Shown one piece after another: positions 41,888-63,310 of a stretch of 64,000 nt of DNA. This stretch comes from an uncultured Solibacteraceae bacterium (GTDB lineage: Bacteria; Acidobacteriota; Vicinamibacteria; Vicinamibacterales; SCN-69-37), in assembly GCA_964423815.1 (NCBI GenBank), contig CAYRGW010000002.1, positions 4,590 to 68,589 of the forward strand, in the 5' to 3' direction. The position numbers and the translations under genes are program-made. How positions within the stretch are numbered: the first letter of the stretch is position 1; each line of letters opens with the position of its first letter. The notes beneath the pieces were generated by a model that searched no databases, had not been told where the DNA came from, and saw only the letters and a program-made list of their open reading frames with translations.

Positions 41888-42421
41888 ATGGAGTTTCGTG
41901 AGACTGCGCTGCCCGGCGTCCTGATTGTGGACTCCGATGTGTTCGAGGATGACCGCGGGTCGTTCACACGCGCGTGGCGGCCGGATGAATTCCGCGCGCG
42001 GGGCCTTGAGACACACATCGAGCAGTGCATGATGGCCTACAACCGTCGCCGTGGCACCGTGCGGGGCATGCATTTTCAGGCGCCCCCGTTTGATGAAGTC
42101 AAACTGGTGCGGGCGACGCGCGGGGTCGTGTATGACGTCATCCTGGACCTGCGCCCGGACTCCCCGGCCTTCAAGCAGTGGATCGCCGTTGAGCTCAGCG
42201 CGGACAATCACCGAATCGTGTACATCCCCAAAGGTCTGGCGCACGGGTACCAGACACTCAGCGACGATGCCGAGCTGATGTATTTTGTGTCGGCCGACTA
42301 TTCGCCCGCCCACCAGCGCGGCGTCCGGTACAGCGACCCGGCATTCGGGATCACGTGGCCGCTTGGCGCGCCCAGTGCGATCAATGAGCGGGATGCGACG
42401 TACCCGGATTTCACCGGCTGA
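41888..42421 (+). CDS. dTDP-4-dehydrorhamnose 3,5-epimerase family cupin (RmlC-like), copy 2
   Basis: 177 aa. DDRGSF, RGMHFQ, VYDVILDLRPDS, GLAHGYQTL. About half of the residues are identical to copy 1 by eye. Confidence 0.8.
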   Translation: MEFRETALPGVLIVDSDVFEDDRGSFTRAWRPDEFRARGLETHIEQCMMAYNRRRGTVRGMHFQAPPFDEVKLVRATRGVVYDVILDLRPDSPAFKQWIAVELSADNHRIVYIPKGLAHGYQTLSDDAELMYFVSADYSPAHQRGVRYSDPAFGITWPLGAPSAINERDATYPDFTG

Positions 42422-46838: not shown

Positions 46839-48084
46839 CCGCGACACGACCCCTCCGAATTCGCAAGTCCAGCAGTTCGACGAGGCGTCTCGCCTGCCGC
46901 CCGGCCTCAAAGTGCTCGAGAAAGTAGGCACGCCCGGCTGCGCCAAGCTGCCGACGATCCTCTATAGACATGGCGCGCAAGGCCCGGACACGCTCGGCAA
47001 GGGCCACCGCGTCCCCGGCCGGGCAGGTGAGCCCCGCGCCAGCCTCTGACACTATACGCGCCCCCTCGCCGTCCAAAGAGGCGATTATGGGCCGCCCCGC
47101 GGCCAGATACGCCTGCACCTTGCCAGGCACCGTCAGGGCAAAAATTTCGTCCGGGTTCAGGCTGACGACCACGGCCTCGGCCTCACGATAGATGGCCGGC
47201 ATCACCGTCATCGGAAATCGCCCCGCCAGCACCACGTTGGTCAGGCCAAGGGCCTCCACCCGTTCGCGGATCCAGTCGAGCCGGCTGCCACTGCCAACAA
47301 ACACCAGCTTGACGTCGTCGAGGTCGCGGAACAGGCGCGCGGCTTCCACGAGGGTGTCAACCGCCTGCACCGTGCCGATATTGCCCGCGAACACAATGCA
47401 GAAGTCGCGCCGCAGGAGGGCGACCAACTCGGCGGGGAGTATGGACTCCCCTGTGTCCGTTGCGGCGTCACTGTCGCCCGGCAAGGCGTTGGCGTAATAA
47501 AACGTCTTGCCTCCGGCGCCATACCGCGCGACCCGATCAAAAAACCCGCGCGACGGCACGAGGATGGTGTCCGCACTGGCGTATATCCAACGCACCATCA
47601 CACCGACGAGCGACAAGGCAAACCGATTGCGCACGTACCCGGTCGCCGCCAGACTCTCAGGCCACAGATCCTGCACCCAGATCGCAAGATGTCCGCCGAG
47701 CCGGCGTTTGAGCCACATCGCTGGGATCGCCATGGTCAACGGCGACGGCGCAAAAACGACGATGGCGTCAAAGGTCTGTCCACGCAGCAGCGAGGGCATC
47801 CAGCGGACACCCGACCAGACAAACGAAAAGTAGTTGCGGATCAGATTCAGCGCGCCACCCGATCGACGGCCACGCATCGGCACACGGTGGACGGGCAGCG
47901 TGCCATCAAGCAGCTCCGTCTGTGTGCCGGTCTCCGTATAACCGGGAAACACCTGGCCGTCGGGATAGTTGGGTTTCCCCGTGGCAACCACCACCTCGTG
48001 GCCCTGATCACGAAGGGTGCGACACAGGTCGGTGATGATGAACGATTCGGGCCAGAAGTACTGGCTGACGACGAGGAGCTTCAC
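46831..48084 (-). CDS. glycosyltransferase family 4 (WbuB/WcaI-like)
   Basis: Start at GTG 48084 (GTGA overlap). VKLLVVSQYFWPESFIITDL..GHEV.V.TG.PNYP. Confidence 0.8.
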   Translation of the reverse strand: MKLLVVSQYFWPESFIITDLCRTLRDQGHEVVVATGKPNYPDGQVFPGYTETGTQTELLDGTLPVHRVPMRGRRSGGALNLIRNYFSFVWSGVRWMPSLLRGQTFDAIVVFAPSPLTMAIPAMWLKRRLGGHLAIWVQDLWPESLAATGYVRNRFALSLVGVMVRWIYASADTILVPSRGFFDRVARYGAGGKTFYYANALPGDSDAATDTGESILPAELVALLRRDFCIVFAGNIGTVQAVDTLVEAARLFRDLDDVKLVFVGSGSRLDWIRERVEALGLTNVVLAGRFPMTVMPAIYREAEAVVVSLNPDEIFALTVPGKVQAYLAAGRPIIASLDGEGARIVSEAGAGLTCPAGDAVALAERVRALRAMSIEDRRQLGAAGRAYFLEHFEAGRQARRLVELLDLRIRRGRVADV

Positions 48085-49238: not shown

Positions 49239-50583
49239 GTCGCACCCACATGACGGCGGTCAACGCGCCGAGGAAGATAAACGGCGCCGCACTTCTGAAT
49301 CCGAGTGCGCAGCCCAGGACCAGCAGCATCAACGTCATGAACCTGTGCCGTACCTCCGGCGACAGGTCACGGGTCAGTCGCGCGACAGGTCTCGCAAACG
49401 CCAGGATGAACAACGCGGTCCCCACGAGACCACTTTCATAGAGCAGGCGCACAAACTGGGAGTTGGGATTGCCGGCCTGTGTGGCGTCGGTCACCAGCCG
49501 GCTGTTCGCTGCGGCCGCGGACCCGAGTCCGGATCCAATCACGACCGGCAGCAGATCCCCATCACGAACCTTCAACACCAGGTCGTAGACCGGATAGACA
49601 CTGTCTCCCTGTGATGCCAGCGCGCCGGGCAACGCGTCCCGCTGCTCAAGGGCCTGCCAGACTCCTTGCAGGTTGGCCGCGTACATCTGCGCGCGCGGCA
49701 GGTTGCGGACGGCCAGCACCGTCAACACGCCCACCACCAACACCACCGTCACCAGCCGGAGAATGCGGCGAACGGACATACGCCGCAACGTCTGCGCCAC
49801 AAACATGGCCACAAACGCGGCGATCCCGAAAAACCCCGCCGCACTCTGGGTGAGCATGGCCGCCACAATGATCAGCGGCGTCCAGCCGCGCCACAACCGA
49901 CGCCCCTGATACCACGCACGCAGGTGCAACATCGCGAGACCAAGGAACAGGAACACAAACGCGTGGCGCGGTTCCCCGGCCAGACCATGAAACCGGACGC
50001 CAACCATTCGCAGGTCGTACAGGTGGCGCGGCACGATTTCCACACCCAGCAACGCGGCCGATGAGAGGCCAATCACGCCGACCACAAACGACAGCACAAA
50101 CATGCCGCCAAACACTTTGAAGAGATAGTCCAGTTGGCGGGGCGTCCGGAGCATGGTCCTGGGCAGGACCACGAAATACCAGAAGTAGTACACCGCGATG
50201 ACGTACTCAAACAGCGGCCGCACCAGCGCTGAGTTCAGCGTCGACGCATACGTCACAATGCCGGAGGGATCCGGCAGCGGCACGTCAAACGCTCCCGACA
50301 AGACGCCGATGACACCCGCCACGACGGCGAGGCCCACGTACTCAAGATAGGTGTGGTCGAGCGACCATCTCCACGACGATCGAGGCAGACGTATCTGCGG
50401 AGTGAGCAACCGCACGACGAGGCGCGCCACCAGCACAAACACCACCACGGCCTGCAGCAGGCGTGAGACGTTGCCGGTCACGCCGGTCACATTGCTGGCG
50501 AACAGGACAAAAAAGAGCATCGGCTCGAGCACCACGGACCAAACGTAGAGTTTGGTCAGTCGGGGCACACGGTCAGTGCTCAT
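49222..50583 (-). CDS. polytopic membrane protein, O-antigen polymerase (Wzy)-like
   Basis: 453 aa, about 11 TM. Position inside the glycan operon. No strong motif. Confidence 0.55.
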   Translation of the reverse strand: MSTDRVPRLTKLYVWSVVLEPMLFFVLFASNVTGVTGNVSRLLQAVVVFVLVARLVVRLLTPQIRLPRSSWRWSLDHTYLEYVGLAVVAGVIGVLSGAFDVPLPDPSGIVTYASTLNSALVRPLFEYVIAVYYFWYFVVLPRTMLRTPRQLDYLFKVFGGMFVLSFVVGVIGLSSAALLGVEIVPRHLYDLRMVGVRFHGLAGEPRHAFVFLFLGLAMLHLRAWYQGRRLWRGWTPLIIVAAMLTQSAAGFFGIAAFVAMFVAQTLRRMSVRRILRLVTVVLVVGVLTVLAVRNLPRAQMYAANLQGVWQALEQRDALPGALASQGDSVYPVYDLVLKVRDGDLLPVVIGSGLGSAAAANSRLVTDATQAGNPNSQFVRLLYESGLVGTALFILAFARPVARLTRDLSPEVRHRFMTLMLLVLGCALGFRSAAPFIFLGALTAVMWVRRDSGH

Positions 50584-51461
50584 GGCGTCTGCAGTCCGAC
50601 GATCGCCTCAAAACGCCGACGCCGTGATGCCGAATGCAACTCGGTGATGCCGCCCACCGCCGCCCGGACACGGGCCAGCGGCATGACGGCCTCGATGTTG
50701 GACCGGTCGATCGCGAAGGGATTGCCGTGTGGTCGCAGGGGCGAGGCAAATGTCGTGAAGGCACAGTCGTAGGTCTGCTGCACCAGGGCAAACCCTCGCG
50801 CGGAGTAGTTCTCCACCGCACCAAACGGCCAGCAGAAGGTGCGAACCGCCGTGCCGAGCCCATCCTCCATCCGCCGCTGTGCGCCGACGATCTCCTGGTC
50901 GAACTGCTCCGGGGTCAACCCATCACCAATCGACTGGTGCGTCATCGTGTGACAGCCGATGGTGTGCCCGCGCCGGACGAGATCACGCGCGTCCGCCCAC
51001 GACATCGGCAGGAAGTCCTCCGTGCTCCAGGACGAGGGCGGCGCCCCTGCAAAGATTCGATCTTCGGCAAACGTCCGCGCGTCGGTGGGAGTCGAAGCGA
51101 GATCGGGATAGGCGGCCGGCACAAAAAAGAACCCCGGCACGCCCACCTCGTCGAGAACATCAGCCGCCACGGTGTAGTGATTCTTGAAGCCGTCGTCGAA
51201 CGTCAGGAGCAGACCGGGTCGAGTCAGGCTCCGCCCGCCGGCGAGATACGCCGTGAGTCCGGCCCCGTCGAGGATCTCAAAGTGGTCACGGAGATAACGG
51301 ATCTGACGCTGGAACGACGCCCGGTCCATCTCACGGGTGGCGTGATAGTTCACGGCGCGGACCATCGGTCCACGGAGCCACTGGCTGTTCATGACGCGCG
51401 AGACGACCCAGACCAGGCCGCTGACGTCGAGCCCGGTGGCCACCAGATCACGTTTGTTCAT
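50580..51461 (-). CDS. polysaccharide deacetylase (CE4) family protein
   Basis: Start at ATG 51461 (ATGA overlap). LLLTFDDGFKNHY, GCHTMTH. Confidence 0.8.
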   Translation of the reverse strand: MNKRDLVATGLDVSGLVWVVSRVMNSQWLRGPMVRAVNYHATREMDRASFQRQIRYLRDHFEILDGAGLTAYLAGGRSLTRPGLLLTFDDGFKNHYTVAADVLDEVGVPGFFFVPAAYPDLASTPTDARTFAEDRIFAGAPPSSWSTEDFLPMSWADARDLVRRGHTIGCHTMTHQSIGDGLTPEQFDQEIVGAQRRMEDGLGTAVRTFCWPFGAVENYSARGFALVQQTYDCAFTTFASPLRPHGNPFAIDRSNIEAVMPLARVRAAVGGITELHSASRRRRFEAIVGLQTP

Positions 51462-52738
51462 CGTCCCCGCATTACCTGTTCGGCCGCCTTGCGTCCACTC
51501 AGGATGGCCTCGTCGCTCCAGAGGTACGCCCACTCGCCATACCGGCCGCACGGCCGGATGCCGTGGGCTTCAAGGTAGGTATGAATCGTCTTGACGGCCG
51601 CGCGCCGGTCCGCGTCGAAGATGACGTAGCCGTATTTGATTGGAATGGTTTCGCTGAAGACGATCTCGTCGTCCGGGCGCAGGACACCGGCCTTCCGCAG
51701 ATCGGCCTCCGCCCGCGCGGTCATTTCTTCCCGCGACGGCGGCCACGGATCGTTGGGGCCGAACGCGATTTCGCACGACACCGAACTGCAGCCGTCCGGC
51801 ACCATCTTCGGCCCCTTGTTGAAGGGGAAACTGATCCGGAAGAACGAATACTCGCGCTCCGGATAATAGATCCAGTGTTTGGTCGTCAGCCCCGGGCGGT
51901 TGATGCCGAAATTAACGACAAAGATCGAGTTGCAACGCAACCGGCTGGCGGCTTCCACCACGTCGGACGGTGGGTCCACCAGCAACTTGACCACCTCGGG
52001 CAGCGGCAACGTGCTCAGGCAGGTCTCGTACGGAATCACCTCATGGTGATTAAATTCGACCTGGCGCCGGCGGGCATCGATGCGTGTGACCCGCATGCCC
52101 ACGCGCGTGCGTTCGGTCACGGTCGACGCGATCGATTCGCCAATCGTGCCGAAGCCGCCACGATCGGGATACAAAAACTCGGCATTGATGCCGAACCCTT
52201 TGGTCTGATCGCGGAGCGCGCCCTCCAGCACTTCGTCGAGGCTCGGGCGGGGATGACGCACACTCACCCACTCTGTTGTGAGTGTGCGCGCGGGGACACC
52301 CCAGAACTTCTCGCTGTAGGGCACCATGAAGTGTGAAGCGATCCCCTTCCCGAACATGAAGTGAATCCAGTCTTCGTAGTGTTTGATGGCGTCACGATCG
52401 GTGAATTCGTTCTGGATGAATCCGATCAGGCAGTCCTTGACGATATCGATGGGCAGGCCGTAGGTGTTGGCCTGGAACGGATACCGGGTCATCGCGCCGA
52501 ACGACTGAATCCACGCTTCACGCACCCGCGGCTGAAGATTCGCCCCGGTCTTCGCCAGCAGGTCCAGCACATAGGCGTTTTTGGTGTGCAGCACGTGAAT
52601 GCCTTCATCAAAAACAAACCCGTTGTTGCGACTCGACTTGGCGTGGCCGCCGGTGCGGGCCTCGCCCTCGAAGACCAGTCCGTCACTATGGTGGGCGGCG
52701 GTCAACCCGGCCAGACCACCACCAAGAATCATCAACAT
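51458..52738 (-). CDS. FAD-dependent oxidoreductase (amine-oxidase / UDP-galactopyranose-mutase-like fold)
   Basis: Start near 52738/52732. MILGGGLAGLTAA dinucleotide motif. Common accessory enzyme type in glycan loci. Substrate unknown. Confidence 0.6.
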   Translation of the reverse strand: MLMILGGGLAGLTAAHHSDGLVFEGEARTGGHAKSSRNNGFVFDEGIHVLHTKNAYVLDLLAKTGANLQPRVREAWIQSFGAMTRYPFQANTYGLPIDIVKDCLIGFIQNEFTDRDAIKHYEDWIHFMFGKGIASHFMVPYSEKFWGVPARTLTTEWVSVRHPRPSLDEVLEGALRDQTKGFGINAEFLYPDRGGFGTIGESIASTVTERTRVGMRVTRIDARRRQVEFNHHEVIPYETCLSTLPLPEVVKLLVDPPSDVVEAASRLRCNSIFVVNFGINRPGLTTKHWIYYPEREYSFFRISFPFNKGPKMVPDGCSSVSCEIAFGPNDPWPPSREEMTARAEADLRKAGVLRPDDEIVFSETIPIKYGYVIFDADRRAAVKTIHTYLEAHGIRPCGRYGEWAYLWSDEAILSGRKAAEQVMRGR

Positions 52739-53805
52739 ACAAAACTCCGAGTCCGACCGGCGTACCGCAAGCGGCGCACACGTTCGTTCAACGCCGAGGC
52801 GAACGGTCGCAGGCCGGGGATCAACAAAGGGGAACCTGTAAACAACGCGGCATACACGATCGCCGCCGGAAAGGCCGCCAGTGCGCCGGCCCATTTCACG
52901 CCGGGCCCCAGCCGCCCGTAGACCACCTTTCGCATGGTGTCCATCTCGGCGGATGTGAGTGAGAGGTCCTGGCCCACACGGTCAAGCGTGGTCTCGACAC
53001 CACGAATCAGGGCGACGACGTCGGCCTTGGACGAGGCGCGGCGCCACCAGGCATCCTCGAGCCGCAGCAACGAACCGAGGCCCGCCACATCGGTGCCGTC
53101 GGTGAACCGCGCGAGCATCGCGTCGTGCAGGTCCTGTGTGCGTTTCCACTGCAACGCGTATTTCGTCACGGACTGTCGCGCGGCGTGGTCGCGCTGGCCC
53201 ACCAGGTACTCCGGCACGACGCCGGCACTTTTGCCTTTCAACGCCATCCGCATGGTGGTTTCAAAATCCTCGACCGGCGACATCGACGGATCAAACCCGC
53301 CCGCGTCGAGCATCGCCTGCCGTTTGAACATGATCGACGGGTGCCAGATCGGACACTTGCCCACCAGGAGCGGCCCCAGGAATCCCCCGTCATCGTCGAC
53401 AGAGGTCCGCCAGTTCCGCAGCCGCTCGCCGTCATGGTTCAGGCCGTATTCCCAGGTGCACGTGATATCGAGATGCGGGCGTTCACGCATGTACGCCAGC
53501 TGCGCCTCAAGCCGGCGCGGCATCGAGACATCGTCCTGATCGAGTCGCGCGATGTACTCGGCGCGGGCCAGTTCGATCCCGCGATTCATGGTGCGCGCGG
53601 TCCCGAGGTTCGGATTGTTTTCGATGAGGCGGATCCTCGGGTCCCCATACGACTTGATGCAGGCGACCGACTCGTCGGTGCTGGCGTCGTTGATGATCAG
53701 GAACTCGAAGTCGGTGAAGGTCTGCGCCAGAATGCTTTCAATGGCGGGCTTCAGGTGGGGCAGCCCGTTGTACACGGGCATGAGGACGGTGACGGCCGGA
53801 GTCAT
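52732..53805 (-). CDS. glycosyltransferase family 2
   Basis: 357 aa. VTVLMPVYNG..L..A..S.L.QT..DFEFLIINDASTD, ARLDQDD. Confidence 0.88.
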   Translation of the reverse strand: MTPAVTVLMPVYNGLPHLKPAIESILAQTFTDFEFLIINDASTDESVACIKSYGDPRIRLIENNPNLGTARTMNRGIELARAEYIARLDQDDVSMPRRLEAQLAYMRERPHLDITCTWEYGLNHDGERLRNWRTSVDDDGGFLGPLLVGKCPIWHPSIMFKRQAMLDAGGFDPSMSPVEDFETTMRMALKGKSAGVVPEYLVGQRDHAARQSVTKYALQWKRTQDLHDAMLARFTDGTDVAGLGSLLRLEDAWWRRASSKADVVALIRGVETTLDRVGQDLSLTSAEMDTMRKVVYGRLGPGVKWAGALAAFPAAIVYAALFTGSPLLIPGLRPFASALNERVRRLRYAGRTRSFVC

Positions 53806-54701
53806 GGGCGGTCCAGGAGTGGGATCAGTTCCGCCTCGACATAGTTGCGCAGCGCGTCCTGCCAGACGGGCATCGTGTTGATCCCCAGCAGGTCGAGCTT
53901 GAAGTTGCGCAACGCCTCGGACGCGGCGCGGGGCGCCGGCAGCGGGTAGTGATCGGAGGTGACGGGACTGACCTGCACATCCGGCCGTTCAAGAATGGCG
54001 CAGAGTTCCTTCGCGATTTCGAAGCGGGAACATGCGCCCTTGTTGGCCAGGTGGTAGGTGCCGAAATACCCCGTATCGAGCAGGGCGCGGATGCCGGTCA
54101 GCATGTCGCGGCAATACGTGGGGCTGCCCATCTTGTCGCTCACCGCGGTGAGGCTGGACTTGCCGTCGTGGATGAACTGCACCAGCTTGCCGACGAACTT
54201 CTTGTCTTTTTCGCCTCCGCCAATCATCCAGCCGGCGCGAATCACGAAATACCGCGAGAGCAGCGACTCCACGATACGTTCGCCGGCGAGTTTGGTATCG
54301 CCGTACACATTGGCCGGATGAGCTGCGTCAAATTCCGTGTACGGTTCGGCTTTGTCGCCGGAGAACACGCCGCCGGTGCTGATATAGACCATCACGGCAT
54401 CATGCCGTTGACACGCCAACGCGACGTTCTGCGTCCCGATGGCATTGGAGTGGTACGCCCAGTCAGGGTCCTGCTGGCAGCGATCGACATCGGTGGCGGC
54501 CGCCAGATGCAACACGACATCGGGTTTGACGTCGCGGGTCAACCGCATCACCGCACCGGGATCACGCACATCGAGTGCTTCAAAACCCGGAACCGCATCG
54601 GTCAGGATCAATTCGGCGTCGGCAAACTGGGCGGCAACGTAGCTGCCCACCATTCCTCCGGCGCCTGTCACCAGGATCCGTTGCTGTTGTTGCTCACTCA
54701 T
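53802..54701 (-). CDS. RmlD-like SDR 4-reductase (dTDP-4-dehydrorhamnose reductase family)
   Basis: 299 aa. ILVTGAGGMVGS, YGDTKLAGE, short RmlD-type substrate domain. Confidence 0.75.
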   Translation of the reverse strand: MSEQQQQRILVTGAGGMVGSYVAAQFADAELILTDAVPGFEALDVRDPGAVMRLTRDVKPDVVLHLAAATDVDRCQQDPDWAYHSNAIGTQNVALACQRHDAVMVYISTGGVFSGDKAEPYTEFDAAHPANVYGDTKLAGERIVESLLSRYFVIRAGWMIGGGEKDKKFVGKLVQFIHDGKSSLTAVSDKMGSPTYCRDMLTGIRALLDTGYFGTYHLANKGACSRFEIAKELCAILERPDVQVSPVTSDHYPLPAPRAASEALRNFKLDLLGINTMPVWQDALRNYVEAELIPLLDRP

Positions 54702-54743: not shown

Positions 54744-55727
54744 CTAGACCGGCCGCATGCGCCGCAAGAGCGCCTGCGCGGCCATGGTGGTCACGGACAG
54801 CCCGGTCCGAACCCACGTGCCCTTCTGGTGGATCGTCCGTCCACCCATCCGGTCCTTGAAATGGAACACGCCAGGGTTGCCGGCCGGATCGAGGCCTTCA
54901 AGATTGTAGGTCACTGCACCGGCCGCCTGCGCCCATTGTAGGGCGGTCCACTGGATCAGGTTGGAGGCCCCGCGCTGAAACGACGCGTGTGTACTCGGCA
55001 CGCTGGCCCCGACGAGATAACCGGCCCGCTGATGGAAACGCACCATCAAGGCCGCAGAGACCAGAACACCATCGGCGGCCGTGGCCGCAAAAACGACGGC
55101 ATCTCCACTGAACTGCGGCACAAATCGCTGGGCGACGGGCTCAGGCACCCCCACCACAAACCCCTTGCGAACTGCGGTGGTGCCGGCCAGTTGATACAGA
55201 TCGTCAAGCCGCTCAGGCGCGTCGTGGCGGGTGATCGTGATCCCCGATTCCTCGCCCTTGTGCAGGTCGTTGCGCCACTTCTTGTGAAACCCTGCCCGAA
55301 TGGCGGCGAGGTCCTGCCTGAGGTCCAGGTGTGCGGTCATCCCCGCGCCGACCGGCCTGAACCCGCGGCGGCTCAGCACGGCCGCGGGGATGGTGTCGCG
55401 GTCGACCTACCAGTCGCAGACCAGGACCGCCCGCGGCAATCGGGCAATCAGGGCGTCCAACATCCGACCAAGCGCGGCGTCGCCCCCCGTCGCCTTCTGC
55501 CAGACCGGGCCTCGCGGACAGTACACAAGTTGCAGTCCATACCGGGACTTGACCAAACACTGCGCCGCGCCAACCACATCGGTCCCGTCGCGCAGGGCCA
55601 CACGCAGCGGCACCCAGCCGTCCGGACGCCGCGCCTCGCCCCAGGCGAAACTCTGCGTGAATTCGGCATCCGTGAACCCGCCACAGATGGCGTCCCACTC
55701 TTCAGGCGACTCGATTGAACTCAGCAA
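54744..55727 (-). pseudogene. FemAB-family transferase interrupted by a single in-frame TAG (55409-55407)
   Basis: The two track ORFs (55805-55407 and 55379-54744) share one frame. Junction reads ..LVCDW*VDRDTIPAAVLSRRG... Joined length is about 327 aa from the TTG start, close to the normal size for the family. The 5' start (TTG 55727) is tentative. Confidence 0.65.
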
Positions 55728-56790
55728 GAATCTGCTCCAGATGTGACGGCTGAAGGTCCTGATGGACCGGGAGTTCGAGCACACGCGCGGCCAGGAACCT
55801 CGCACCGCGCAGGTCCCCCTCGTCGGTCGGCACGTGGTCGAGCACCGGCGCTTCCGGAAAGCCCATGTTCAGCACGAGGCCCCGTTGCGCCATCGCGGCG
55901 GCCACCCGATCCCGGTCGTCGTGCAACAGCGGAAAACTGAAGGGGACGACGCCGTCGGGCAGGACCGGGAACATCGCGCGCTCACCAAGACGCGCGAGGT
56001 AGAAGTTGTAGTTCACTCGACGGCGTTCGGCAAACGCGTGGACATCGGTCGCGCTGTAGATGCGCCGGGCCATCGAGGACATCGCGGTGATCGGACTGAC
56101 CGGTGCCGTCGCATCCAGACTGCGGACGGCAGCCGATGTGGTCGCGCCGCCGACCGGTGGTCGCCACTGCACCCGGAAACAAACGCCCTTGACCGCCAGT
56201 CGTGCGAGGCCGGCCAGTGTGGTCATCCCCCGTGGTTGGGCGACCACCGGGTGCACTCGAAGACGGGGCTGGGTCACGAGGGCGCCGCCGTCGGGCAGCG
56301 GCAGCGATTTGCGCAGGCTGAAGATGGCGGCGTCTCCCACGCTGCCGAGCGGCCGTCCGCCGGCCTGCCCAAACAAGGCATGGGCACAGTCCTCGATGAG
56401 AGCAACACCCGCCGCGTCCGCCACCGCGCGCAGCCTCGCCACGTCCTGCGGGAAACCAAAATAGTGCACGACGTAAATCGCCCGGGTGCCGGGATGGATA
56501 CGCCGCGCGATGTCGTCGGGGTCCACCGCGCCCCGGTCGTCCACGGCGTACCACTCGGGCCGCACACCGGCCGCGCGAAACGCCCCGACCACTTCCGCGC
56601 ACAGGTAGGCCGGCGCGAGCACCGATTCATCGGCCCGCAGCCCCATCCCCTCGAACAGCGCACGAATGGCGTCGCTGCCGCGCGAGTAGAACGAGGTGGA
56701 CGCGGCGTCCAGGGCGGGGAAAGCCCGACTGGCCGTCTGTCCGGCAAACAGGTCGCGCACCTGCAGGGATGGTGCGGCCGGAATAAACAT
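55702..56790 (-). CDS. DegT/DnrJ/EryC1/StrS-family PLP-dependent sugar aminotransferase
   Basis: 362 aa from ATG 56790 (track ORF trimmed). YVVHYFGFP, IEDCAHALFG, DAAIFSLRKSLPLPDGG (PLP Lys). Confidence 0.8.
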   Translation of the reverse strand: MFIPAAPSLQVRDLFAGQTASRAFPALDAASTSFYSRGSDAIRALFEGMGLRADESVLAPAYLCAEVVGAFRAAGVRPEWYAVDDRGAVDPDDIARRIHPGTRAIYVVHYFGFPQDVARLRAVADAAGVALIEDCAHALFGQAGGRPLGSVGDAAIFSLRKSLPLPDGGALVTQPRLRVHPVVAQPRGMTTLAGLARLAVKGVCFRVQWRPPVGGATTSAAVRSLDATAPVSPITAMSSMARRIYSATDVHAFAERRRVNYNFYLARLGERAMFPVLPDGVVPFSFPLLHDDRDRVAAAMAQRGLVLNMGFPEAPVLDHVPTDEGDLRGARFLAARVLELPVHQDLQPSHLEQILAEFNRVA

Positions 56791-56794
56791 AGGG

Positions 56795-57439
56795 TCAGCC
56801 AGTCCGGCGAAGGCGGCGGAGCGAACGAAACACATCAGGCCGGTTCGGCTGGAGGATTTCCTTGAAACCCATCTTCTTGTAGAAACCAACAGCCGCCGCG
56901 CGACCGCCGGCCACCAGCACCAGCACCCGTTTCGCCGCTCCCCCGCGTCGGAGATCATCAACGACGCGGCCGAGCACGTAGAGGAACAAAAACCCACGCG
57001 CCGACGGGTCCGTGTACACCGGACCGACATACACGTCGCCGGACCTGAGCAACGCCGGATTAAACGGCACCTCCCGGATGGGAGACGTGGACGCATCCAG
57101 GAACACCCAGGTGTAATGCACAATCGTTCCGTCCCGCAATGCGAGATAACACCGCACGTCGTCGCGGCCAATCAAGGCAAAGTAGCGGCGGTCGTACGCG
57201 TCCGGGCCGGGGTCCCGACTGAAGACATCCGACTCAAGCGCAGGGATATCGCTCCGAGTGGCGAGCCGAACCTCGACCGGGTCTTTCTGGGGAAATGCCG
57301 CGAGGGTGTCCGTCAGGGAAAACTCGAGATAGTGAAACTCCCACTTCTCCCTCCAGTGGTAACGCGCGTAGGACTGCACACGTGTCCAGAGTCCCCCAAG
57401 ACCGTGCTGGCGAAGGGTGTTAAACCCGGCGCGAATCAC
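56795..57439 (-). CDS. GNAT-like acyltransferase, paralog 1
   Basis: Start at GTG 57439 (GTGA overlap with the E2 stop; alternative GTG at 57457). ..VYVGPVYTDPSARG.., AVGFYKKMGFKE. Aligns along its length with the 60774-61415 product. Confidence 0.65.
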   Translation of the reverse strand: MIRAGFNTLRQHGLGGLWTRVQSYARYHWREKWEFHYLEFSLTDTLAAFPQKDPVEVRLATRSDIPALESDVFSRDPGPDAYDRRYFALIGRDDVRCYLALRDGTIVHYTWVFLDASTSPIREVPFNPALLRSGDVYVGPVYTDPSARGFLFLYVLGRVVDDLRRGGAAKRVLVLVAGGRAAAVGFYKKMGFKEILQPNRPDVFRSLRRLRRTG

Positions 57440-58530
57440 GCGGTCTCCCCTCGCCACTCACGGTCGATGGCGTTCAGGAACGCCGCCGCACCGCTGCCGT
57501 TGGCCACGCGGTGATCAAAAGTCAGGGAGAGGTCCGCGAGGTCCACACCGGGCCGAGCGTCGGAGAGCGCCACAATCGCGGTCTGCCCCGGGGGAAGAAT
57601 CGGCTGAAAGTGGTGGACACCGCGGCCGAGCATTGATGTCACGGTGATGGTGGCCCCCGTGAGGTCGGCCGGCGTTAATGTCCGCTTTCCTGCGGCGATC
57701 TGAAGACGCCGCAGGTCCGTCGCGACATCCTTGAGCTCACGCGTGTCGGCATCCTTGACCACGATGACGTAGAGATCCTGATCGATGTCCAGCGCCACCC
57801 CGACGTGCACCGCCTCAAACACATGCGCCTGTTTGGCATCCGCGTCGAACTCGGCGTTGAAGATCCCGTGCGCGAGCGCTGCACGCGCCACCGCCTGCAC
57901 CAGCAGGTCGACGGGACTCACCAGTGTCTTGAGCTCCCGGGACACCGCGACCGCCCGGGTACGAATCGCCGCCATGTCCACCTCGCGGCTCAGGTGCGAG
58001 ACCGGAATCCTGGCGCCAAGCTCCATTGTGGCCGCCACACGTCGCTGGACCGGGCCCAGGACCTGCACCCGGAATGGCGCTCGAGCGGCCGGCGCGGACG
58101 CGGCCGCCTTGCGCGCTTCGGCCATCTCCACCACGTCGCGCTCACGAATCAACCCGCGCCCGGCAAACAACGCGGGGTCGAGGCCGAGCTCTTCCATCTT
58201 TCGAAGGGCCTTGGGACTGATCGTCGCCGGTGTCTCTGCGCCGGCGACCATCGCCTCCGGCAGCGGTGTATCGATCGAACTCGTGACAAAACCGAGGATC
58301 CCACCAATGGCCACCTCTGCCCCGACTGGTGCGCGATGCCTGGCGATGCCTGAGGCGGGAGCGGCCACGGCGACGGCGGCCTTCGACGTTTCGATCGTGC
58401 ACAGATCCGCGCCCTCCTGCACGGGCGCTCCGTCGTCGACGCTCCAGGACACAACGTAGACCGAATCCGCGTTGACGATCTCCCGGGGGACCAGGACGTG
58501 ATGCAATTCAGAACTCAAAGGCTGGGACAT
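57436..58530 (-). CDS. 2-oxoacid dehydrogenase E2-type lipoyl acyltransferase
   Basis: 364 aa from ATG 58530. Lipoyl domain (GADLCTIETSKAAVAV), E3-binding-like ISPKALRKMEELGLDP, catalytic core ending SLTFDHRVANGSGAAAF. Confidence 0.85.
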   Translation of the reverse strand: MSQPLSSELHHVLVPREIVNADSVYVVSWSVDDGAPVQEGADLCTIETSKAAVAVAAPASGIARHRAPVGAEVAIGGILGFVTSSIDTPLPEAMVAGAETPATISPKALRKMEELGLDPALFAGRGLIRERDVVEMAEARKAAASAPAARAPFRVQVLGPVQRRVAATMELGARIPVSHLSREVDMAAIRTRAVAVSRELKTLVSPVDLLVQAVARAALAHGIFNAEFDADAKQAHVFEAVHVGVALDIDQDLYVIVVKDADTRELKDVATDLRRLQIAAGKRTLTPADLTGATITVTSMLGRGVHHFQPILPPGQTAIVALSDARPGVDLADLSLTFDHRVANGSGAAAFLNAIDREWRGETA

Positions 58531-58537
58531 AAGGCGA

Positions 58538-60517
58538 TCATTCGACAAGACTGCGCATCGCCGAGACAACGCGCGCCACGTCCGGCAACACAGCGTCTTC
58601 GGCGGGCTTGGCATTCGGAATTGGCAGGTGCCGGGCTCCGACGCGTGCACACCGGGCCGATCGTGTCGCCGGGTTCTCGGCAATACGCGCGACCACTTCT
58701 GCGCCGAATCCCCAGGGTGCCGTGCCTTCTTCCACGACGAGCAACCGGCCGGTCCGACGAACGGACTCCAGAATGGGATCGATCCGCAATGGGGCCAGTT
58801 CGGCCGGCACGACGTATTCCGCGACCAACTCATCCTCGGCAAAACTTCGGGCCATGGCCTGTTCGACCACTTCGGTCATCGCCCCGTAGGTGACGACGGT
58901 CAGATCCGCCTGCGCGCCAACAGGCCTCCAGGTCGGTGTGGGGTACAACGCGTGCTGTTCCGACGCGGCGAGTTCCAGCACGGTGCCCGGAGGCGGTTCC
59001 GCGAGCAGCCGCCGCGCATAGAGCGACTTCTGCTCCACAAACAGCACCGGGCGATCGTCGTGCATCACGGCTCGTCGCAGCAGTTCGCCGGGATCGTGTC
59101 TCGCGCTGATCGCCACCACCGCGAGTCCAGGCACGCCGAGGAACATTTTTTCCAGCGACTGACTGTGCGTCGGACCGTATCCCCGGCGTCCGCCCATCGC
59201 GACGCGTACGACCGCTGGTGCGATGACCTTGTTGTTGTACATCCAGCGGAACTTGGCCAGATGATTGATGATCTGGTCCGCACAAAGGGTGACGAAATCA
59301 CCAAACATGATCTCGGCGATCGGACGGAATCCCCGAAGGCTCAGGCCGCCCGCCACCCCAACAATGCCGGCCTCGCTGATCGGGGTCGAGAGGACACGAT
59401 CCGGGAATCGGGTCGAGAGGCCACGGCTCACCTTGAATGCGCCGCCATAAGGATCGGCGAGATCCTCGCCGAGCATCACGACTCGATCGGAAGATTCAAA
59501 CAGTCTGTGAAGCGCCTGATTAAGATTCTGCACCACGAGTTGCGGGTCACCGTCGGGCACTGGCGCGAGCGCCGGCATGGGATCGCCCGTTGGTGATTCT
59601 GCGAGCTGACGTTCCTCGGCAAGCGCATCAATCTCAAGCACGGGTGTGGCTTCCGCGCGAGCCACGGACTGATCCACTCGCGCTTCAGCGGCGGTCCGTA
59701 TGGCGGCCGCCACGTCCGCGCCAACCTCCGCCCGCAGCGGAATCAGCGGACAAGCATTTTTGGCGCGCGCCAGCTCTTCAGGAGCGCGGTCATCGTCTCC
59801 CTTGCTGTGCGCGGCCATGCGATGGGTGTGGAGGATCTGGAAGAAGGGCGCACTGGTGCGTCGTACCTGATCAACGACGGCGCTCATGTGTGCGCACAGG
59901 GCCGGGCCATCCACCGCATCACGTTCGTCGGTGGCAATGCCGAACGCCGCGGCCCTGGCAGCCACGTCGCCGGCGATCGTGGTGGACGTGGGCGTCGATT
60001 GTGCGTACCCGTTGTGTTCCAGCACAAACAACACCGGCACCTGCCACAACGACGCCAAGTTAAACGCTTCGTAGACGGCGCCCTCACCCGTCGTGCCATC
60101 ACCCAGGAAACAGACGGCGACAGCGCCGGTGCCGGCCATCTTTTCGGCAAGGGCCATCCCGGTCGTCACCGGGACCAACCCACCCTGAATGCCGTTCGAA
60201 TAAAAATTCCGTTCGCACAGATGCTGGCTTCCGCCACGACCACCGCAGACCCCGGACTCCCGGCCCATAATCTCGGCGATCAGCGCATCAGGATTGTCCG
60301 AGTACATCAGGTAGTGGCCGTGACACCGATGTGGAGCGAAGACAATGTCTTTGGAGAGGTCAAGCGCGCCGACCACCGCCACGGCGCACAATTCCTGCCC
60401 GATACAGGTGTGCGTCGTGCCGAACAACCGGCCTTCCGCAAACAGGGAGAGGAGACGCTCTTCGACGGCGCGAATCAGCGAGACGCGCTCGAGCACTTCA
60501 CGGTTGCCGACGGTCAT
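58538..60517 (-). CDS. TPP-dependent 2-oxoacid dehydrogenase E1, fused alpha-beta subunits
   Basis: 659 aa. Alpha part: GRGGSQHL, GDGTTGEGAVYEAFNLASLW.VPVLFVLEHNGYA. Beta part: VMLGEDLADPYGGAFKVS.GL, TPISEAGIVG. Confidence 0.88.
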   Translation of the reverse strand: MTVGNREVLERVSLIRAVEERLLSLFAEGRLFGTTHTCIGQELCAVAVVGALDLSKDIVFAPHRCHGHYLMYSDNPDALIAEIMGRESGVCGGRGGSQHLCERNFYSNGIQGGLVPVTTGMALAEKMAGTGAVAVCFLGDGTTGEGAVYEAFNLASLWQVPVLFVLEHNGYAQSTPTSTTIAGDVAARAAAFGIATDERDAVDGPALCAHMSAVVDQVRRTSAPFFQILHTHRMAAHSKGDDDRAPEELARAKNACPLIPLRAEVGADVAAAIRTAAEARVDQSVARAEATPVLEIDALAEERQLAESPTGDPMPALAPVPDGDPQLVVQNLNQALHRLFESSDRVVMLGEDLADPYGGAFKVSRGLSTRFPDRVLSTPISEAGIVGVAGGLSLRGFRPIAEIMFGDFVTLCADQIINHLAKFRWMYNNKVIAPAVVRVAMGGRRGYGPTHSQSLEKMFLGVPGLAVVAISARHDPGELLRRAVMHDDRPVLFVEQKSLYARRLLAEPPPGTVLELAASEQHALYPTPTWRPVGAQADLTVVTYGAMTEVVEQAMARSFAEDELVAEYVVPAELAPLRIDPILESVRRTGRLLVVEEGTAPWGFGAEVVARIAENPATRSARCARVGARHLPIPNAKPAEDAVLPDVARVVSAMRSLVE

Positions 60518-60747
60518 TCGAGTCGGACGCCTTTCGCCCTCAACAGATCCGCAAGGTCGCGGACCGACAGGATGGCGACCACTTCCTCAAGGGGAATTTC
60601 CACCTGGTACTCCGCTTCGACGGCCCCCATCAAGTGCACGTGATGAAACGAGTCCCACACGCCCAGCGTGAGGGGACCGCTCTCGTCGTTAATCTCTGAC
60701 GCGTCAATATTCAGCGTCTTGGCCACGAACCCATACAATTTCTTCAC
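60514..60747 (-). CDS. acyl carrier protein
   Basis: 77 aa from GTG 60747 (GGGGGAG SD 3 nt upstream). LGVWDSFHHVHLM carries the Ser attachment motif. ATGA-type overlap with E1. Confidence 0.75.
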   Translation of the reverse strand: MKKLYGFVAKTLNIDASEINDESGPLTLGVWDSFHHVHLMGAVEAEYQVEIPLEEVVAILSVRDLADLLRAKGVRLE

Positions 60748-60773
60748 TGCTCCCCCATCATCCACTAGCAACT

Positions 60774-61415
60774 CTAAACCAGTCGTCCGCCTCGCAGCCA
60801 CCTCAGCAGGGGCGGTCCCGGGCGCCGGCCCGTCTCCTGAAAACCGATGCGCCGATAGAAGCGCGGCAACGCGGAGACTCGCCCATCGACCATGAGCAAC
60901 AGCCGATCCTTCTTCAGGGCGCGCAGGTCACGCAGCACCCGGGTGAGCACAGCCGGGTAGATCGCGCCATGCACGCCCGGGCGCGTGAACACCGGGCCAA
61001 TGTAGACATCGTTGTCACCCAGGTGTCCCACCGGGAGCGTGGCCAGGATCGACGCCCTCGCATTCAGGTTGACCCAGCTGTAATGAACGATGCTGCCCGA
61101 CACTTCGGCCAGATAACAGCGGACCGACGACGAATCCCCAAGCGACTGAAAATACCGGCGTTCGTACGCGTGGTGCCCGATCAGGAACGGAAACACCTCC
61201 GCCTCGATCCTGGGCACATCGAGCCGCGTCGCCTCGCGGATGACGATACTGGCCGGCGCCGGAAATTCGGAGACCTTGTCGGTCATGCGCGCGGCGAAGT
61301 ACACGAACTGGTATTTGTCCCACGAGTGGTACTTCACAAACTGCGCTGTGCTGCGGAGCGTCCCGACCAGGCCTCGTTCGGCCAGACTTGCCACGACTGG
61401 CCGCCTACGACTCAT
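60774..61415 (-). CDS. GNAT-like acyltransferase, paralog 2
   Basis: 213 aa from ATG 61415 (overlaps the upstream TGA by 1 nt). ..VYIGPVFTRPGVHG.., RFYRRIGFQE. Confidence 0.65.
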   Translation of the reverse strand: MSRRRPVVASLAERGLVGTLRSTAQFVKYHSWDKYQFVYFAARMTDKVSEFPAPASIVIREATRLDVPRIEAEVFPFLIGHHAYERRYFQSLGDSSSVRCYLAEVSGSIVHYSWVNLNARASILATLPVGHLGDNDVYIGPVFTRPGVHGAIYPAVLTRVLRDLRALKKDRLLLMVDGRVSALPRFYRRIGFQETGRRPGPPLLRWLRGGRLV

Positions 61416-63310
61416 CAATGCGCGTGGCCCCGAGGTGGTGGCGGATCCAGAAACACGTGAATCGTCTCTTCCGTGAGGGGACTCAGGCACTCAGCCCGAT
61501 GCCGCTCAGCCCAGGCACGGGTCGCCGTGGTCCGCTCCGGCAGGTGGCTCAGCAGGTCCAGCACGTGGTGCTCCAAATCGTCGACCGTAAACACGGGTGC
61601 GACGGTCCCGGGCAACCATCCCAGAGGGTTCAGATCAAGATCTGTCTCCCGCCCCAGGACCACGACCGGGATGCCCGCCAACAACAGCTCAAGGCCGGTT
61701 GTCGTCCCCGACGGCACCACTGCACACGACGCGACGCGAACGCACTCGGCCATTTCACCGCCGGCCCTGGCAAACTGATCCGGCAACGCGCGACCATTAC
61801 ACGCCGCGTGCCAGTTCGACTCGCTCATCATCGGGTGTGTCTTGAGCAGCACCCGGAGGGTCACACGGTGGCCAAACGCTTTGAACACCTTGTCCATGAC
61901 CTCAGCCGCCGTTCCGGTATCGAGCGGCACCATCACCAGAATCGTGTTGGCTGGAGGCTCGGTCCTCGACAGTGCCTGCAGGTGCAGGTACCGCAGCGAT
62001 GGCCCGATCCGGAATTCGGCCCCGGCAAATCCCTCTCGCGCGAACAGGTCGGCGGCGAAGGCCGAGTTGCACACAATCACATCCGGATGCGGCGCCACAG
62101 CGTGTTCGGCCTCGGTGGTGAACATGTGCAGTTGCAGCGGGTACGGCGCCAGGTAGTGCTGAAACCCGACCGTGGTCACCGAGGGCATGTGGTGGCGCAA
62201 GGCCAGTACCTGGGGCTTCTCGGTCACCATGTTTTCAAACTTGTCGAGAAAGATGTCGAACTCAATCCTGCGCGCCTTGAGGGCCGCGATGAGCCGCGTG
62301 TACCTGATGAACCGCGTGAGGCCCGTATCCCCGGCGGCCACCCGCGCGGCATCCCGCATCAAATGGTCGACCCGGATACCCCCGACCACCTGGGTGGAAG
62401 GCACCAACCAGAGTTGCCCGATGACAATGCCTGCGGCCCAGACATAGTCGCGGAGACGGTAATAGTCTTCCGGCAACAGACACGGCGTGGGACTGTTGCG
62501 GAGCGTCGTGAACGCGGCCCGGCGTGAGCGGGTGACGTTCTCCAACCAGGGCACCACCACGACGTCACAACCACGTGCCCGCAGGTGCTCCGGCAGCACG
62601 GTGAAATACCGATCGCTGCTGCCGCCATACTGCCGCAACGCCGCCTCGTCGATGCAGCAGTGCATCAACACACGCGTGACACCCGCCCGCGTGAAGGGTG
62701 TGACCGGGCGTCCCGTGGTCCTCGCGTCGAGCAGATCGCGCACCGAACGCAACAAGTGGAGCGCCCACACGCTGCAGAATCGGACACCCCACCTGACCTT
62801 CTCAATGACCTCGGGAAACCAGCGAGGTCCGGTGACAGGCCCCCCACCTGCGGCGTGCGCCGCAATCGTTCGCAGCACCGCCCGGTTGTCCGAGACGATC
62901 AGTGTCGGCGCATCCTGCCCCGCCAGCGCGTCAAGGGCCAGGCGCACCAGACACAGGTGCCGGAACAGCGGAGAAACGTAGGTGTTGCGCTCGGCGAGAC
63001 GTGAGGCCCACCACCGTAGACCACCAGGGGATTGGTCCCGCAGGCCCACCACCCAGTCCACGAACGGCCCGCGCAGGGCTCCGGCCACCTGCTGGAGCGC
63101 TGCGCCCGAAGGCACCCGTTCAAAACCCTCCCCGAGCGCGGCCTCCCACGCGAGGGCGTCGCTGTAGCGCCGACCGAGGAACAACCACCGCACGGGCTGC
63201 GACCCGGCCTGCCGGCGCCACGCCGGCGCCAGCCGAAGCACGCGGCCCCGCTCGTTCACGTGGGCCAGATGCACCGGGCGCGGGTCAGACACGCTCGGCA
63301 AAGTCCGCAA
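61415..63310 (-). CDS. hypothetical 631-aa protein, C-terminal half GT-B/Rossmann-like
   Basis: No motif recognised with confidence. C-terminal ..AVVPSGTTTGLELLLAGIPVVVL.. resembles a nucleotide-sugar-binding GT-B domain. Alternative start at GTG 63274. Confidence 0.55.
   Translation of the reverse strand: MRTLPSVSDPRPVHLAHVNERGRVLRLAPAWRRQAGSQPVRWLFLGRRYSDALAWEAALGEGFERVPSGAALQQVAGALRGPFVDWVVGLRDQSPGGLRWWASRLAERNTYVSPLFRHLCLVRLALDALAGQDAPTLIVSDNRAVLRTIAAHAAGGGPVTGPRWFPEVIEKVRWGVRFCSVWALHLLRSVRDLLDARTTGRPVTPFTRAGVTRVLMHCCIDEAALRQYGGSSDRYFTVLPEHLRARGCDVVVVPWLENVTRSRRAAFTTLRNSPTPCLLPEDYYRLRDYVWAAGIVIGQLWLVPSTQVVGGIRVDHLMRDAARVAAGDTGLTRFIRYTRLIAALKARRIEFDIFLDKFENMVTEKPQVLALRHHMPSVTTVGFQHYLAPYPLQLHMFTTEAEHAVAPHPDVIVCNSAFAADLFAREGFAGAEFRIGPSLRYLHLQALSRTEPPANTILVMVPLDTGTAAEVMDKVFKAFGHRVTLRVLLKTHPMMSESNWHAACNGRALPDQFARAGGEMAECVRVASCAVVPSGTTTGLELLLAGIPVVVLGRETDLDLNPLGWLPGTVAPVFTVDDLEHHVLDLLSHLPERTTATRAWAERHRAECLSPLTEETIHVFLDPPPPRGHAH

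Follow-up and report, generated by a model that had tools for sequence, protein, structure and literature searches.

A candidate acyl-carrier-protein-loading E1/E2 cassette in a surface-glycan operon of an uncultured Solibacteraceae bacterium

A few natural-product pathways use a thiamine diphosphate (TPP)-dependent E1 and a lipoyl-bearing E2 to load an acyl carrier protein (ACP). PMC6335953, which cites Peng et al. 2012, describes E1/lipoyl-E2 enzymes whose product is a glycolicacyl unit attached to an ACP: QncN/L/M in the quinocarcin pathway, NapB/D in the naphthyridinomycin pathway, and the homologous SclQ1-4 in the scleric acid pathway. In Photorhabdus, a pyruvate dehydrogenase (PDH)-like E1/E2 pair is proposed to prime a carrier from a 2-oxoacid in pepteridine synthesis, with E3 (dihydrolipoamide dehydrogenase) borrowed from the host (PMC5384830). 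The same article also cites pristinamycin and N-acyl-amide pathways for carrier loading by E1/E2. Here, we analyse a 64,000-nucleotide stretch of contig CAYRGW010000002.1 (hereafter the window; G+C ~64%) from an uncultured Solibacteraceae bacterium, in which genes for an E1, an E2, and an ACP lie inside a surface-glycan operon. An initial annotation of this stretch had pointed to the naphthyridinomycin and quinocarcin precedent (QncN/L/M), and PMC6335953 and PMC5384830 confirm it. All negative results for the window refer to its 64 kb.

The operon is dense, lies on the minus strand, and runs from ~63980 down to ~42425. It is proposed that a cassette within it is a self-contained acyl supply, in which E1 and E2 load the ACP and two GNAT-like proteins acylate an amino sugar. 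We give this reading a probability of about 0.6. Its first part, the predicted loading of an ACP by E1/E2 instead of CoA, is well supported in silico by the comparisons described below. The seven minus-strand open reading frames (ORFs) that had been reported for the cassette are all present:

60774..61415, minus strand: GNAT-like protein 1 (GNAT1), 213 aa, paralog of GNAT2
60514..60747, minus strand: ACP, 77 aa, serine in a WDSF motif
58538..60517, minus strand: TPP-dependent E1 alpha-beta fusion, 659 aa
57436..58530, minus strand: E2 (lipoyl domain, linker resembling a peripheral subunit-binding domain (PSBD), catalytic domain), 364 aa
56795..57439, minus strand: GNAT2, 214 aa, GTG start
55702..56790, minus strand: divergent DegT-like pyridoxal phosphate (PLP) enzyme, 362 aa
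54744..55727, minus strand: FemAB-like gene, split by an in-frame TAG (55407-55409)

These genes had been called translationally coupled. The description suits three of the six junctions, which overlap (ACP/E1 by 4 nt, E2/GNAT2 by 4 nt, and DegT/FemAB by 26 nt), and fails for the other three, which are gaps of 26, 7, and 4 nt. The ATG of GNAT1 overlaps the stop codon of the gene upstream, which encodes a TIGR04326-like protein, by 1 nt. The start codon is ambiguous for the ACP (60747, 60765, or 60801) and for E2 (58530 or 58506).

The domain assignments made earlier for the three core proteins hold, and the TPP, IETSKAAV, FDHRVANG, and WDSF motifs quoted for them are all found in the sequence. 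The ACP matches PP-binding (PF00550) with 26.6 bits against a cut-off of 20.8 and carries WDSF at residue 31; all ACPs adjoining related E1 genes have the Ser of WDS. In Pfam, E1 is composed of E1_dh (residues 11-294), Transket_pyr (332-501), and Transketolase_C (535-650). Its TPP motif GDG-X27-N, GDGTTGEGAVYEAFNLASLWQVPVLFVLEHN, starts at residue 139, and none of 37 homologs departs from G139, D140, G141, or N169. E2 contains a Biotin_lipoyl domain (residues 14-79; 29.3 bits, cut-off 22.1) with IETSKAAV at residue 46, a PSBD-like conserved segment (xSxxAxxxxxxxGLxxxxFAGRGLVRxxDV, residues 104-140), and a 2-oxoacid_dh catalytic domain (156-356) with FDHRVANG at residue 338. The initial annotation had named the ACP Ser, the lipoyl Lys, and the catalytic His as residues whose conservation should be checked, and all are conserved in alignments: the lipoyl Lys (ETSKA) in each of the 29 aligned relatives that have a complete N-terminus, and the catalytic His, in FDH(R/Q)xxxG, in all 30 aligned E2s.

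Profile scores and the enzymes missing from the window set the E1/E2 pair apart from housekeeping complexes. E1 scores 213.5 bits against PDH E1-alpha TIGR03182 (cut-off 393.85) and 177.6 bits against PDH E1-beta NF006667 (cut-off 321), and the best NCBIfam match of E2 reaches 104 bits against a cut-off of 722. The nearest solved structures are also distant (E = 1e-18 for E2, and 1e-33 to 1e-50 for the E1 halves). Every ORF with coding-like G+C at third codon positions (GC3) was scanned with Pfam, and the window was searched for the redox-disulfide motif of E3. Neither an E3 nor an acyl-CoA ligase was found by these scans, as had been stated before. Pfam likewise detected no lipoate ligase, ketosynthase, or AMP-binding ligase among the coding-like ORFs of the window, and no Condensation domain; the neighbours of the cassette are GNATs and glycan enzymes. 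Similarity of E1 was also tried as a guide to the acyl group and gave no usable signal, the alpha half being nearest to human PDH E1-alpha and the beta half to archaeal PDH and bacterial branched-chain 2-oxoacid dehydrogenase (BCKDH) beta subunits.

The evidence that carries the ACP-loading proposal comes from the wider E1 family. Relatives of the window E1 occur in at least 580 species (one genome per species) of Chloroflexota, Planctomycetota, Nitrospirota, Acidobacteriota, Bacteroidota, Verrucomicrobiota, Lachnospiraceae, and other groups. For 85 non-redundant loci, all ORFs within 9 kb of E1 were clustered and the E1-adjacent gene was classified, which was possible for 63. Partners were found by all-against-all ORF clustering together with domain-wise searches; tblastn at 1e-5 missed most of them in distant loci. 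Two partner types emerge. Type A, the form of the window, consists of a lipoyl domain, a PSBD-like linker, and a 2-oxoacid_dh catalytic domain. In type B, the same lipoyl domain and linker are followed by a left-handed beta-helix (LbH) acyltransferase. A carrier protein is encoded in 30/31 type A loci and is absent from 30/32 type B loci (Fisher p = 1.8e-14, a value that overstates independence because the loci share ancestry), and the one carrier-less type A locus has only 1.7 kb of sequence after E1. A neighbour-joining tree of E1, which has no support values and no outgroup, contains several separate clades of each type.

Read most simply, this pattern means that passing the acyl group to a phosphopantetheinyl carrier is what E2 catalytic domains of this family are for, and that a terminal transferase fused to the lipoyl arm would make both the E2 catalytic domain and the carrier unnecessary. 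In one type B protein (L086:12054-13130) the NCBIfam cut-off for NeuD/PglB/VioB sugar acetyltransferases is passed (180 vs 160.8 bits), and through this sister architecture the E1 family is connected with the acylation of sugars. Fusion proteins are in line with this reading. The window E2, used as the query of an exhaustive HMMER search, gave scores (not a phylogeny) of 148 bits to P0228 (lipoyl-E2cat-PP-binding-Condensation, where E2cat is the E2 catalytic domain) and 119 bits to P0307 (lipoyl-E2cat-PP-binding-sulfotransferase), above the 111-116 bits to housekeeping-type E2s. P0228 adjoins an E1 alpha-beta fusion that is 45% identical to the window E1.

The carriers and partners of the family vary in form. 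Twelve type A carriers are free ACPs with a WDS motif, and 18 are N-terminal carrier-like domains fused to a phosphopantetheinyl transferase of AcpS type. The carrier-AcpS fusion (L063:13260-14030 and 17 other loci) lies directly 3' of E2, has an invariant Ser and often a C-terminal hydrophobic tail, and from its domain make-up looks like a self-priming carrier. An E3-like redox-disulfide motif was found in 1 of 94 related sequences (1.66 Mb in total). This sole motif, GGCCLNTGCIPTK, is at ~6200 (+) of L042, directly 3' of the carrier-AcpS gene in a Lachnospiraceae metagenome-assembled genome (MAG); this anaerobe may carry its own E3. Type B proteins (lipoyl-PSBD-NeuD/PglD/VioB) take the place of E2 beside E1 in ~40 of the 85 loci, for example in L007-L025, L038, and L050. 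There is also an LbH (hexapeptide) acyltransferase with a C-terminal ACP (L033:4331-5563), and in a Gaiellaceae MAG a single 1100-aa ORF reads E1alpha-E1beta-lipoyl-PSBD-LbH (L026:10007-13309), which could reflect a lost stop codon or a sequencing error. In ~20 related loci, mostly from Chloroflexota (e.g. L007-L009, L013-L015, L021-L025), an in-frame stop falls within the E1 match; E1 alpha and beta are probably separate adjacent genes there. Glycan-type genes are common in the related loci (of 88: DegT/SDR in 36, GT2 in 19, Bac_transf in 15, and GT4 in 14).

The cassette is also kept as a block in close relatives. Over 100 proteins share 60-82% identity with the window E1, and the closest named relatives among the matches listed are Binatia and Dormibacteraeota MAGs. 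Conservation of the neighbourhood, proposed as a check in the initial annotation, was observed at E1 identities of ~99% (L090), 82% (L001/L002), and 62% (L003-L005). The order [GT-B protein]-ACP-E1-E2-GNAT is kept in these relatives. GNAT1 orthologs lie immediately upstream of the ACP in L001 and L090, a GNAT2 ortholog lies 3' of E2 in L001, L003, and L090, and orthologs of the RmlD, GT2, and deacetylase genes adjoin the module in the same three loci. More generally, DegT-like, FemAB-like, RmlD-like, GT2, and deacetylase genes are found nearby in relatives in variable order.

Taken together, a pathway with the following steps can be envisaged. E1 with TPP would decarboxylate a short 2-oxoacid, or cleave a ketose phosphate as QncN/L does, and would then reductively acylate the lipoyl-lysine of E2. 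The catalytic domain of E2 would then transfer the acyl moiety on the dihydrolipoamide arm to the ACP, at its phosphopantetheine thiol, and not to CoA. E3, phosphopantetheinyl transferase (PPTase), and the lipoylation enzymes would come from elsewhere in the genome, E3 re-oxidising the lipoyl arm and PPTase priming the ACP. GNAT1 and GNAT2 would shift the acyl group from the ACP to the amine or amines of a sugar nucleotide, most likely forming an amide. The acceptor would be made from UDP-GlcNAc by the FnlA-like 4,6-dehydratase of the operon, through a 4-keto-6-deoxy intermediate, and then by the DegT-like aminotransferase. A second amine may be uncovered by the deacetylase, as in the NodB/NodA and LpxC/LpxD pairs, and the FemAB-like enzyme, if intact, may add an amino acid. 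We infer the acyl group, the GNAT donor, the acceptor, and N- rather than O-acylation, and the GNAT, deacetylase, and FemAB-like steps are drawn from gene order and fold; the E1 and E2 steps are based on homology together with the family comparison. The other operon genes are as follows:

5' end of the operon, minus strand: HAD hydrolase gene, then the 631-aa TIGR04326-like gene
61415..63310, minus strand: TIGR04326-like protein, 631 aa, TIGR04326 E = 2.9e-12
53802..54701, minus strand: RmlD-type 4-keto-6-deoxy-sugar reductase, 299 aa, TIGR01214 243 bits (cut-off 224)
52732..53805, minus strand: GT2 glycosyltransferase, 357 aa, Glycos_transf_2 E = 1e-28
51458..52741, minus strand: amine-oxidase/PRK07208-like flavoprotein, between the GT2 and deacetylase genes
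50580..51551, minus strand: polysaccharide deacetylase PF01522, Polysacc_deac_1 E = 2.5e-19
45777..46946, minus strand: FnlA/PseB-like UDP-GlcNAc 4,6-dehydratase, Polysacc_synt_2 and Polysacc_syn_2C
after the deacetylase, minus strand: 453-aa membrane protein, two GT4 glycosyltransferases, the FnlA/PseB-like gene, WecA-like initiating transferase, 500-aa protein

The dehydratase scores 525 bits against TIGR04130 FnlA (cut-off 730) and 310 bits against PseB in NCBIfam, and the start of the GT2 gene overlaps the stop of the RmlD gene by 4 nt. The initial annotation had described the flanking genes as glycosyltransferases, a polymerase, and sugar-nucleotide enzymes. Glycosyltransferases (the GT2 and two GT4) are indeed seen, together with the WecA-like, FnlA-like, RmlD, and Polysacc_deac_1 genes; the supposed polymerase is the 453-aa membrane protein, which has no family match.

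Two proteins of the operon were considered for the acyl module and set aside. The flavoprotein at 51458-52741 was tried as a private E3. It has no disulfide-reductase motif, is PRK07208/HpnE-like, and is missing in the syntenic L001; a counterpart is present in L090. The 631-aa TIGR04326-like protein has a GT-B fold in its AlphaFold2 (AF2) model (pLDDT 92), with Foldseek matches to GT-B glycosyltransferases and UDP-GlcNAc 2-epimerases, and its homologs occur in glycan loci without E1, E2, or ACP. The genes found with these homologs are CTP_transf_3, SIS, DHQ-synthase-like, and 2-hydroxyacid-dehydrogenase genes, a setting that hints at transfer of an unusual sugar activated with CMP.

The later steps of the pathway depend on the GNATs and the DegT-like and FemAB-like proteins. 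GNAT2 matches Acetyltransf_1 (PF00583; 24.4 bits, cut-off 20.7), and its AF2 model (pLDDT 79) matches GNAT structures in Foldseek at E = 4e-9, the top matches including glucosamine N-acetyltransferase and the TDP-fucosamine acetyltransferase WecD. GNAT1, described earlier as GNAT-like, has no Pfam or NCBIfam match and would count as a GNAT solely by paralogy to GNAT2 (39% identity, E = 4e-43). The DegT_DnrJ_EryC1 match of 55702-56790 (E = 1.8e-28, 100 bits) covers only profile positions 46-187 of 360, and all NCBIfam equivalogs are far under cut-off. A Lys lies at residue 158, in SLRKSLPLPDGG. The protein is a probable sugar 4-aminotransferase. The FemAB-like gene is not the intact ORF that had been reported. 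The FemAB profile is matched (47 bits, cut-off 24), and both halves flanking the in-frame TAG have FemAB and Acetyltransf_6 matches. In L090, which is 98.9% identical over 15.5 kb, the codon at this site is TAT (Tyr) and the gene encodes an intact 327-aa protein. The TAG is either a recent one-base nonsense mutation or an error of MAG assembly.

The central idea of the initial annotation, acyl-ACP generation for amino-sugar N-acylation, is partly supported: ACP loading is largely upheld by synteny, by the co-occurrence of E2cat and carrier, by the fusions, and by the sister architecture, the last steps are proposals, and the FemAB gene to which a part had been assigned is interrupted here.

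Several points weigh against the proposal. The carrier loading assigned to the E1 family rests on sequence comparison, and the loci compared share ancestry, as stated above. At the Asp position of the textbook DHRxxDG motif, the clade of the window E2 has Asn, and other E2s of the alignment have Glu or Asp; the E2 linker has no match to Pfam E3_binding at E <= 0.01, and Pfam finds no PPTase in the window. The nearest structures of GNAT2 in Foldseek are all acyl-CoA-dependent. The nonsense codon at 55407-55409 means that this genome may have a modified or degenerating pathway. For a plain acetyl group, the advantage over acetyl-CoA is unexplained; this raises the suspicion of another acyl unit without being evidence of one. 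Finally, E1 proteins of 66-68% identity are encoded with an ACP and an E2 among non-glycan genes (L087:7723-13116 and L088:7758-13154), and a 45%-identical E1 alpha-beta fusion lies in a locus (L094:5014-12578) resembling those for non-ribosomal peptide synthetases (NRPS). The latter locus also encodes a 1016-aa lipoyl-E2cat-T-C protein and an A-T-TE protein (A, adenylation; T, thiolation; C, condensation; TE, thioesterase), preceded by FemAB-like and flavoprotein genes. Because of these three loci, the module is not glycan-specific, and the E1 family also serves non-glycan pathways; the ACP-E1-E2 trio appears to behave as a portable module. Upstream of the ACP in L087 and L088 are proteins of 335 and 336 aa with no Pfam or NCBIfam match and no BLAST similarity to GNAT2; by eye, from a sequence motif, the 335-aa protein may be GNAT-like.

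The alternative that survives best is that the ACP is loaded as proposed and the acyl group goes elsewhere, to O-acylation of the polymer, to an amino acid that the FemAB-like enzyme would add and the acyl group would cap, or to a lipid or other non-sugar acceptor. This is unlikely in our estimate, though it deserves to be kept in mind. The portable trio in non-glycan and NRPS-like loci is in its favour, as are the coupling of the FemAB-like and DegT-like genes and the fatty-acid desaturase and methyltransferases of the operon region. In addition, the NeuD-family and WbbJ/WcaF-like LbH enzymes of related loci include O-acetyltransferases. The position of GNAT2, however, directly 3' of E2 and before the aminotransferase in all close relatives, speaks for a sugar amine, and so do the resemblance of its fold to sugar N-acetyltransferases and the fused LbH partner that clears the NeuD/PglB/VioB cut-off. 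The FemAB-like gene, for its part, is dispensable here.

A slightly less probable alternative is that a divergent but ordinary 2-oxoacid dehydrogenase makes a local acyl-CoA for CoA-dependent GNATs, and that the ACP serves another step. It would account for the CoA-dependent structural matches of GNAT2, for the standard catalytic His retained in E2, and for the similarity of E1, which is greatest to PDH-type E1s. The structural comparison was tried as a way to identify the GNAT donor and was set aside: Foldseek returns CoA-dependent GNATs only, and structure cannot tell a CoA from an ACP donor because both offer pantetheine. What counts against the acyl-CoA route is the carrier. It is present in 30/31 E2cat loci and gone where the lipoyl arm is fused to an acyltransferase, E2cat-carrier fusions are among the top matches of the window E2, and the window contains no other means of loading an ACP (AMP-binding ligase, ketosynthase, or acyltransferase).

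That the cassette no longer works here, or is being lost, and that its gene order is a remnant, is quite improbable. The nonsense codon in the FemAB-like gene and the lack of a PPTase or E3 nearby would fit such a state, but the former is a single substitution in a metagenome-assembled contig and could stem from faulty assembly, the gene is unbroken in the near-identical contig L090, and no other gene of the cassette is damaged, their catalytic residues being conserved and their GC3 coding-like. Least credible is that E1 is a C-C bond-forming TPP enzyme adding a two-carbon branch to a keto-sugar, in the way of the E1-like AviB1/AviB2 or of YerE in branched-sugar pathways: the FnlA-like enzyme probably supplies a 4-keto-6-deoxy sugar, and 7 related loci encode E1 with no lipoyl partner within 9 kb, but acyloin-type branching needs neither an E2 with conserved lipoyl Lys and His nor a coupled ACP.

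Beyond the ACP-loading cassette itself, we advance as a tentative view, less likely than not, that the cassette is one member of a large and phylogenetically wide system in which lipoate-dependent oxidative decarboxylation, rather than acyl-CoA, feeds the acylation of surface glycans. Such a system would have two interchangeable output stages, either E2cat to carrier to GNAT or LbH enzyme, or a lipoyl arm fused to a PglD-type N-acetyltransferase, and in its most novel version the acyl group would be other than acetyl, for example glycolyl, propionyl, or another unit derived from a 2-oxoacid.

The remainder of the window contains a nuo operon, PurH, SelA, PRPP synthetase, two RmlC copies, and methyltransferases, as well as genes of lipopolysaccharide-core type (a GT9 heptosyltransferase and two Wzy_C proteins). 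The two RmlC (dTDP-4-dehydrorhamnose 3,5-epimerase) genes are at 29495-30028 (+), adjoining thiG, and at 41888-42421 (+), just past the downstream end of the glycan operon. A SIS-domain (GmhA-like) gene at 24867-25433 (-) is inserted in the nuo operon between the genes of the 49-kDa and 30-kDa subunits. Between a Wzy_C gene and the glycan operon, the segment 35441-41861 (-) encodes a 744-aa protein with no family match, three S-adenosylmethionine (SAM) methyltransferases, a fatty-acid desaturase, and a DUF218 protein.

The way in which bacterial surface glycans act as antigens, are recognised by phages, and are detected by the immune system is shaped by the N-acyl groups of their amino sugars. 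Known N-acyl donors are acyl-CoA, acyl-ACP from fatty acid synthase, adenylated acids, and formyl-tetrahydrofolate. If the proposal is correct, a lipoate- and TPP-dependent route would be a new donor logic that ties glycan decoration to pools of 2-oxoacids (or ketoses), and the principle of carrier loading by E1/E2 would extend past secondary metabolism. It would also explain hundreds of 'pyruvate/2-oxoisovalerate dehydrogenase' annotations in polysaccharide loci of many phyla, including those of gut Firmicutes and Bacteroidota. The version with a non-acetyl group, if true, would give a new biosynthetic origin to unusual N-acyl substituents of bacterial polysaccharides. The lipoyl-PglD fusions of related loci are the most surprising by-product of the analysis and offer a very direct test case for enzymology. 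A full-text search, which had most subscription-journal papers outside its scope, found no description of E1/E2-carrier loading in glycan, O-antigen, or capsule loci, or of lipoyl-PglD fusions; the precedents that it yielded are all from natural-product pathways.

Comparison with described systems places the cassette as follows. Like the Qnc, Nap, and Scl systems, it brings together a TPP-dependent E1, a lipoyl-E2 with a catalytic domain, and a dedicated ACP, with no E3 in the cluster and the carrier replacing CoA. Those systems belong to actinomycete antibiotic clusters and feed an NRPS, whereas the window has a polysaccharide operon with GNATs as the presumed users. The domain arrangement also differs: in the Qnc system E1-alpha stands alone and E1-beta is fused to E2 (QncL), whereas in the window E1 alpha and beta are fused and E2 is separate. 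The pepteridine system has Plu2796, in which E2 is fused to T and C domains, with an E1-like subunit, and the window E2 has P0228, a protein of that architecture, among its highest-scoring matches. In pepteridine synthesis the carrier is fused to E2 and an NRPS C domain condenses the acyl group onto a pterin; the window has a free ACP and presumed GNAT users.

In the pseudaminic-acid-type (Pse) pathway, PseB is an inverting UDP-GlcNAc 4,6-dehydratase, PseC a DegT-family 4-aminotransferase, and PseH a GNAT that acts on the 4-amino sugar with acetyl-CoA. The window likewise has FnlA/PseB-like, DegT-like, and GNAT genes. Unlike in the Pse pathway, its proteins score well under the Pse equivalog cut-offs, and no NeuB/PseI-type synthase is seen in the window. 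In the NodB/NodA/NodF and LpxC/LpxD systems, an N-acetyl sugar is deacetylated and re-acylated from an acyl-ACP of fatty acid synthesis. The operon resembles these in encoding a PF01522 deacetylase, an ACP, and N-acyltransferases together. The transferases there are of NodA or LbH type and those here are GNATs; the likeness is one of function only, and the transferases are not homologous. With housekeeping PDH and branched-chain complexes, finally, the cassette shares the Pfam domains, the TPP motif, the lipoyl Lys, and the catalytic His. It differs from them in its fused E1, its single lipoyl domain, the Asn in place of Asp, the lack of an adjacent E3, and its coupling inside a glycan operon. 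The cassette thus appears to combine a known chemical logic, described elsewhere only for secondary metabolites, with an output (the GNATs), a domain arrangement, and a biological setting that are all new.

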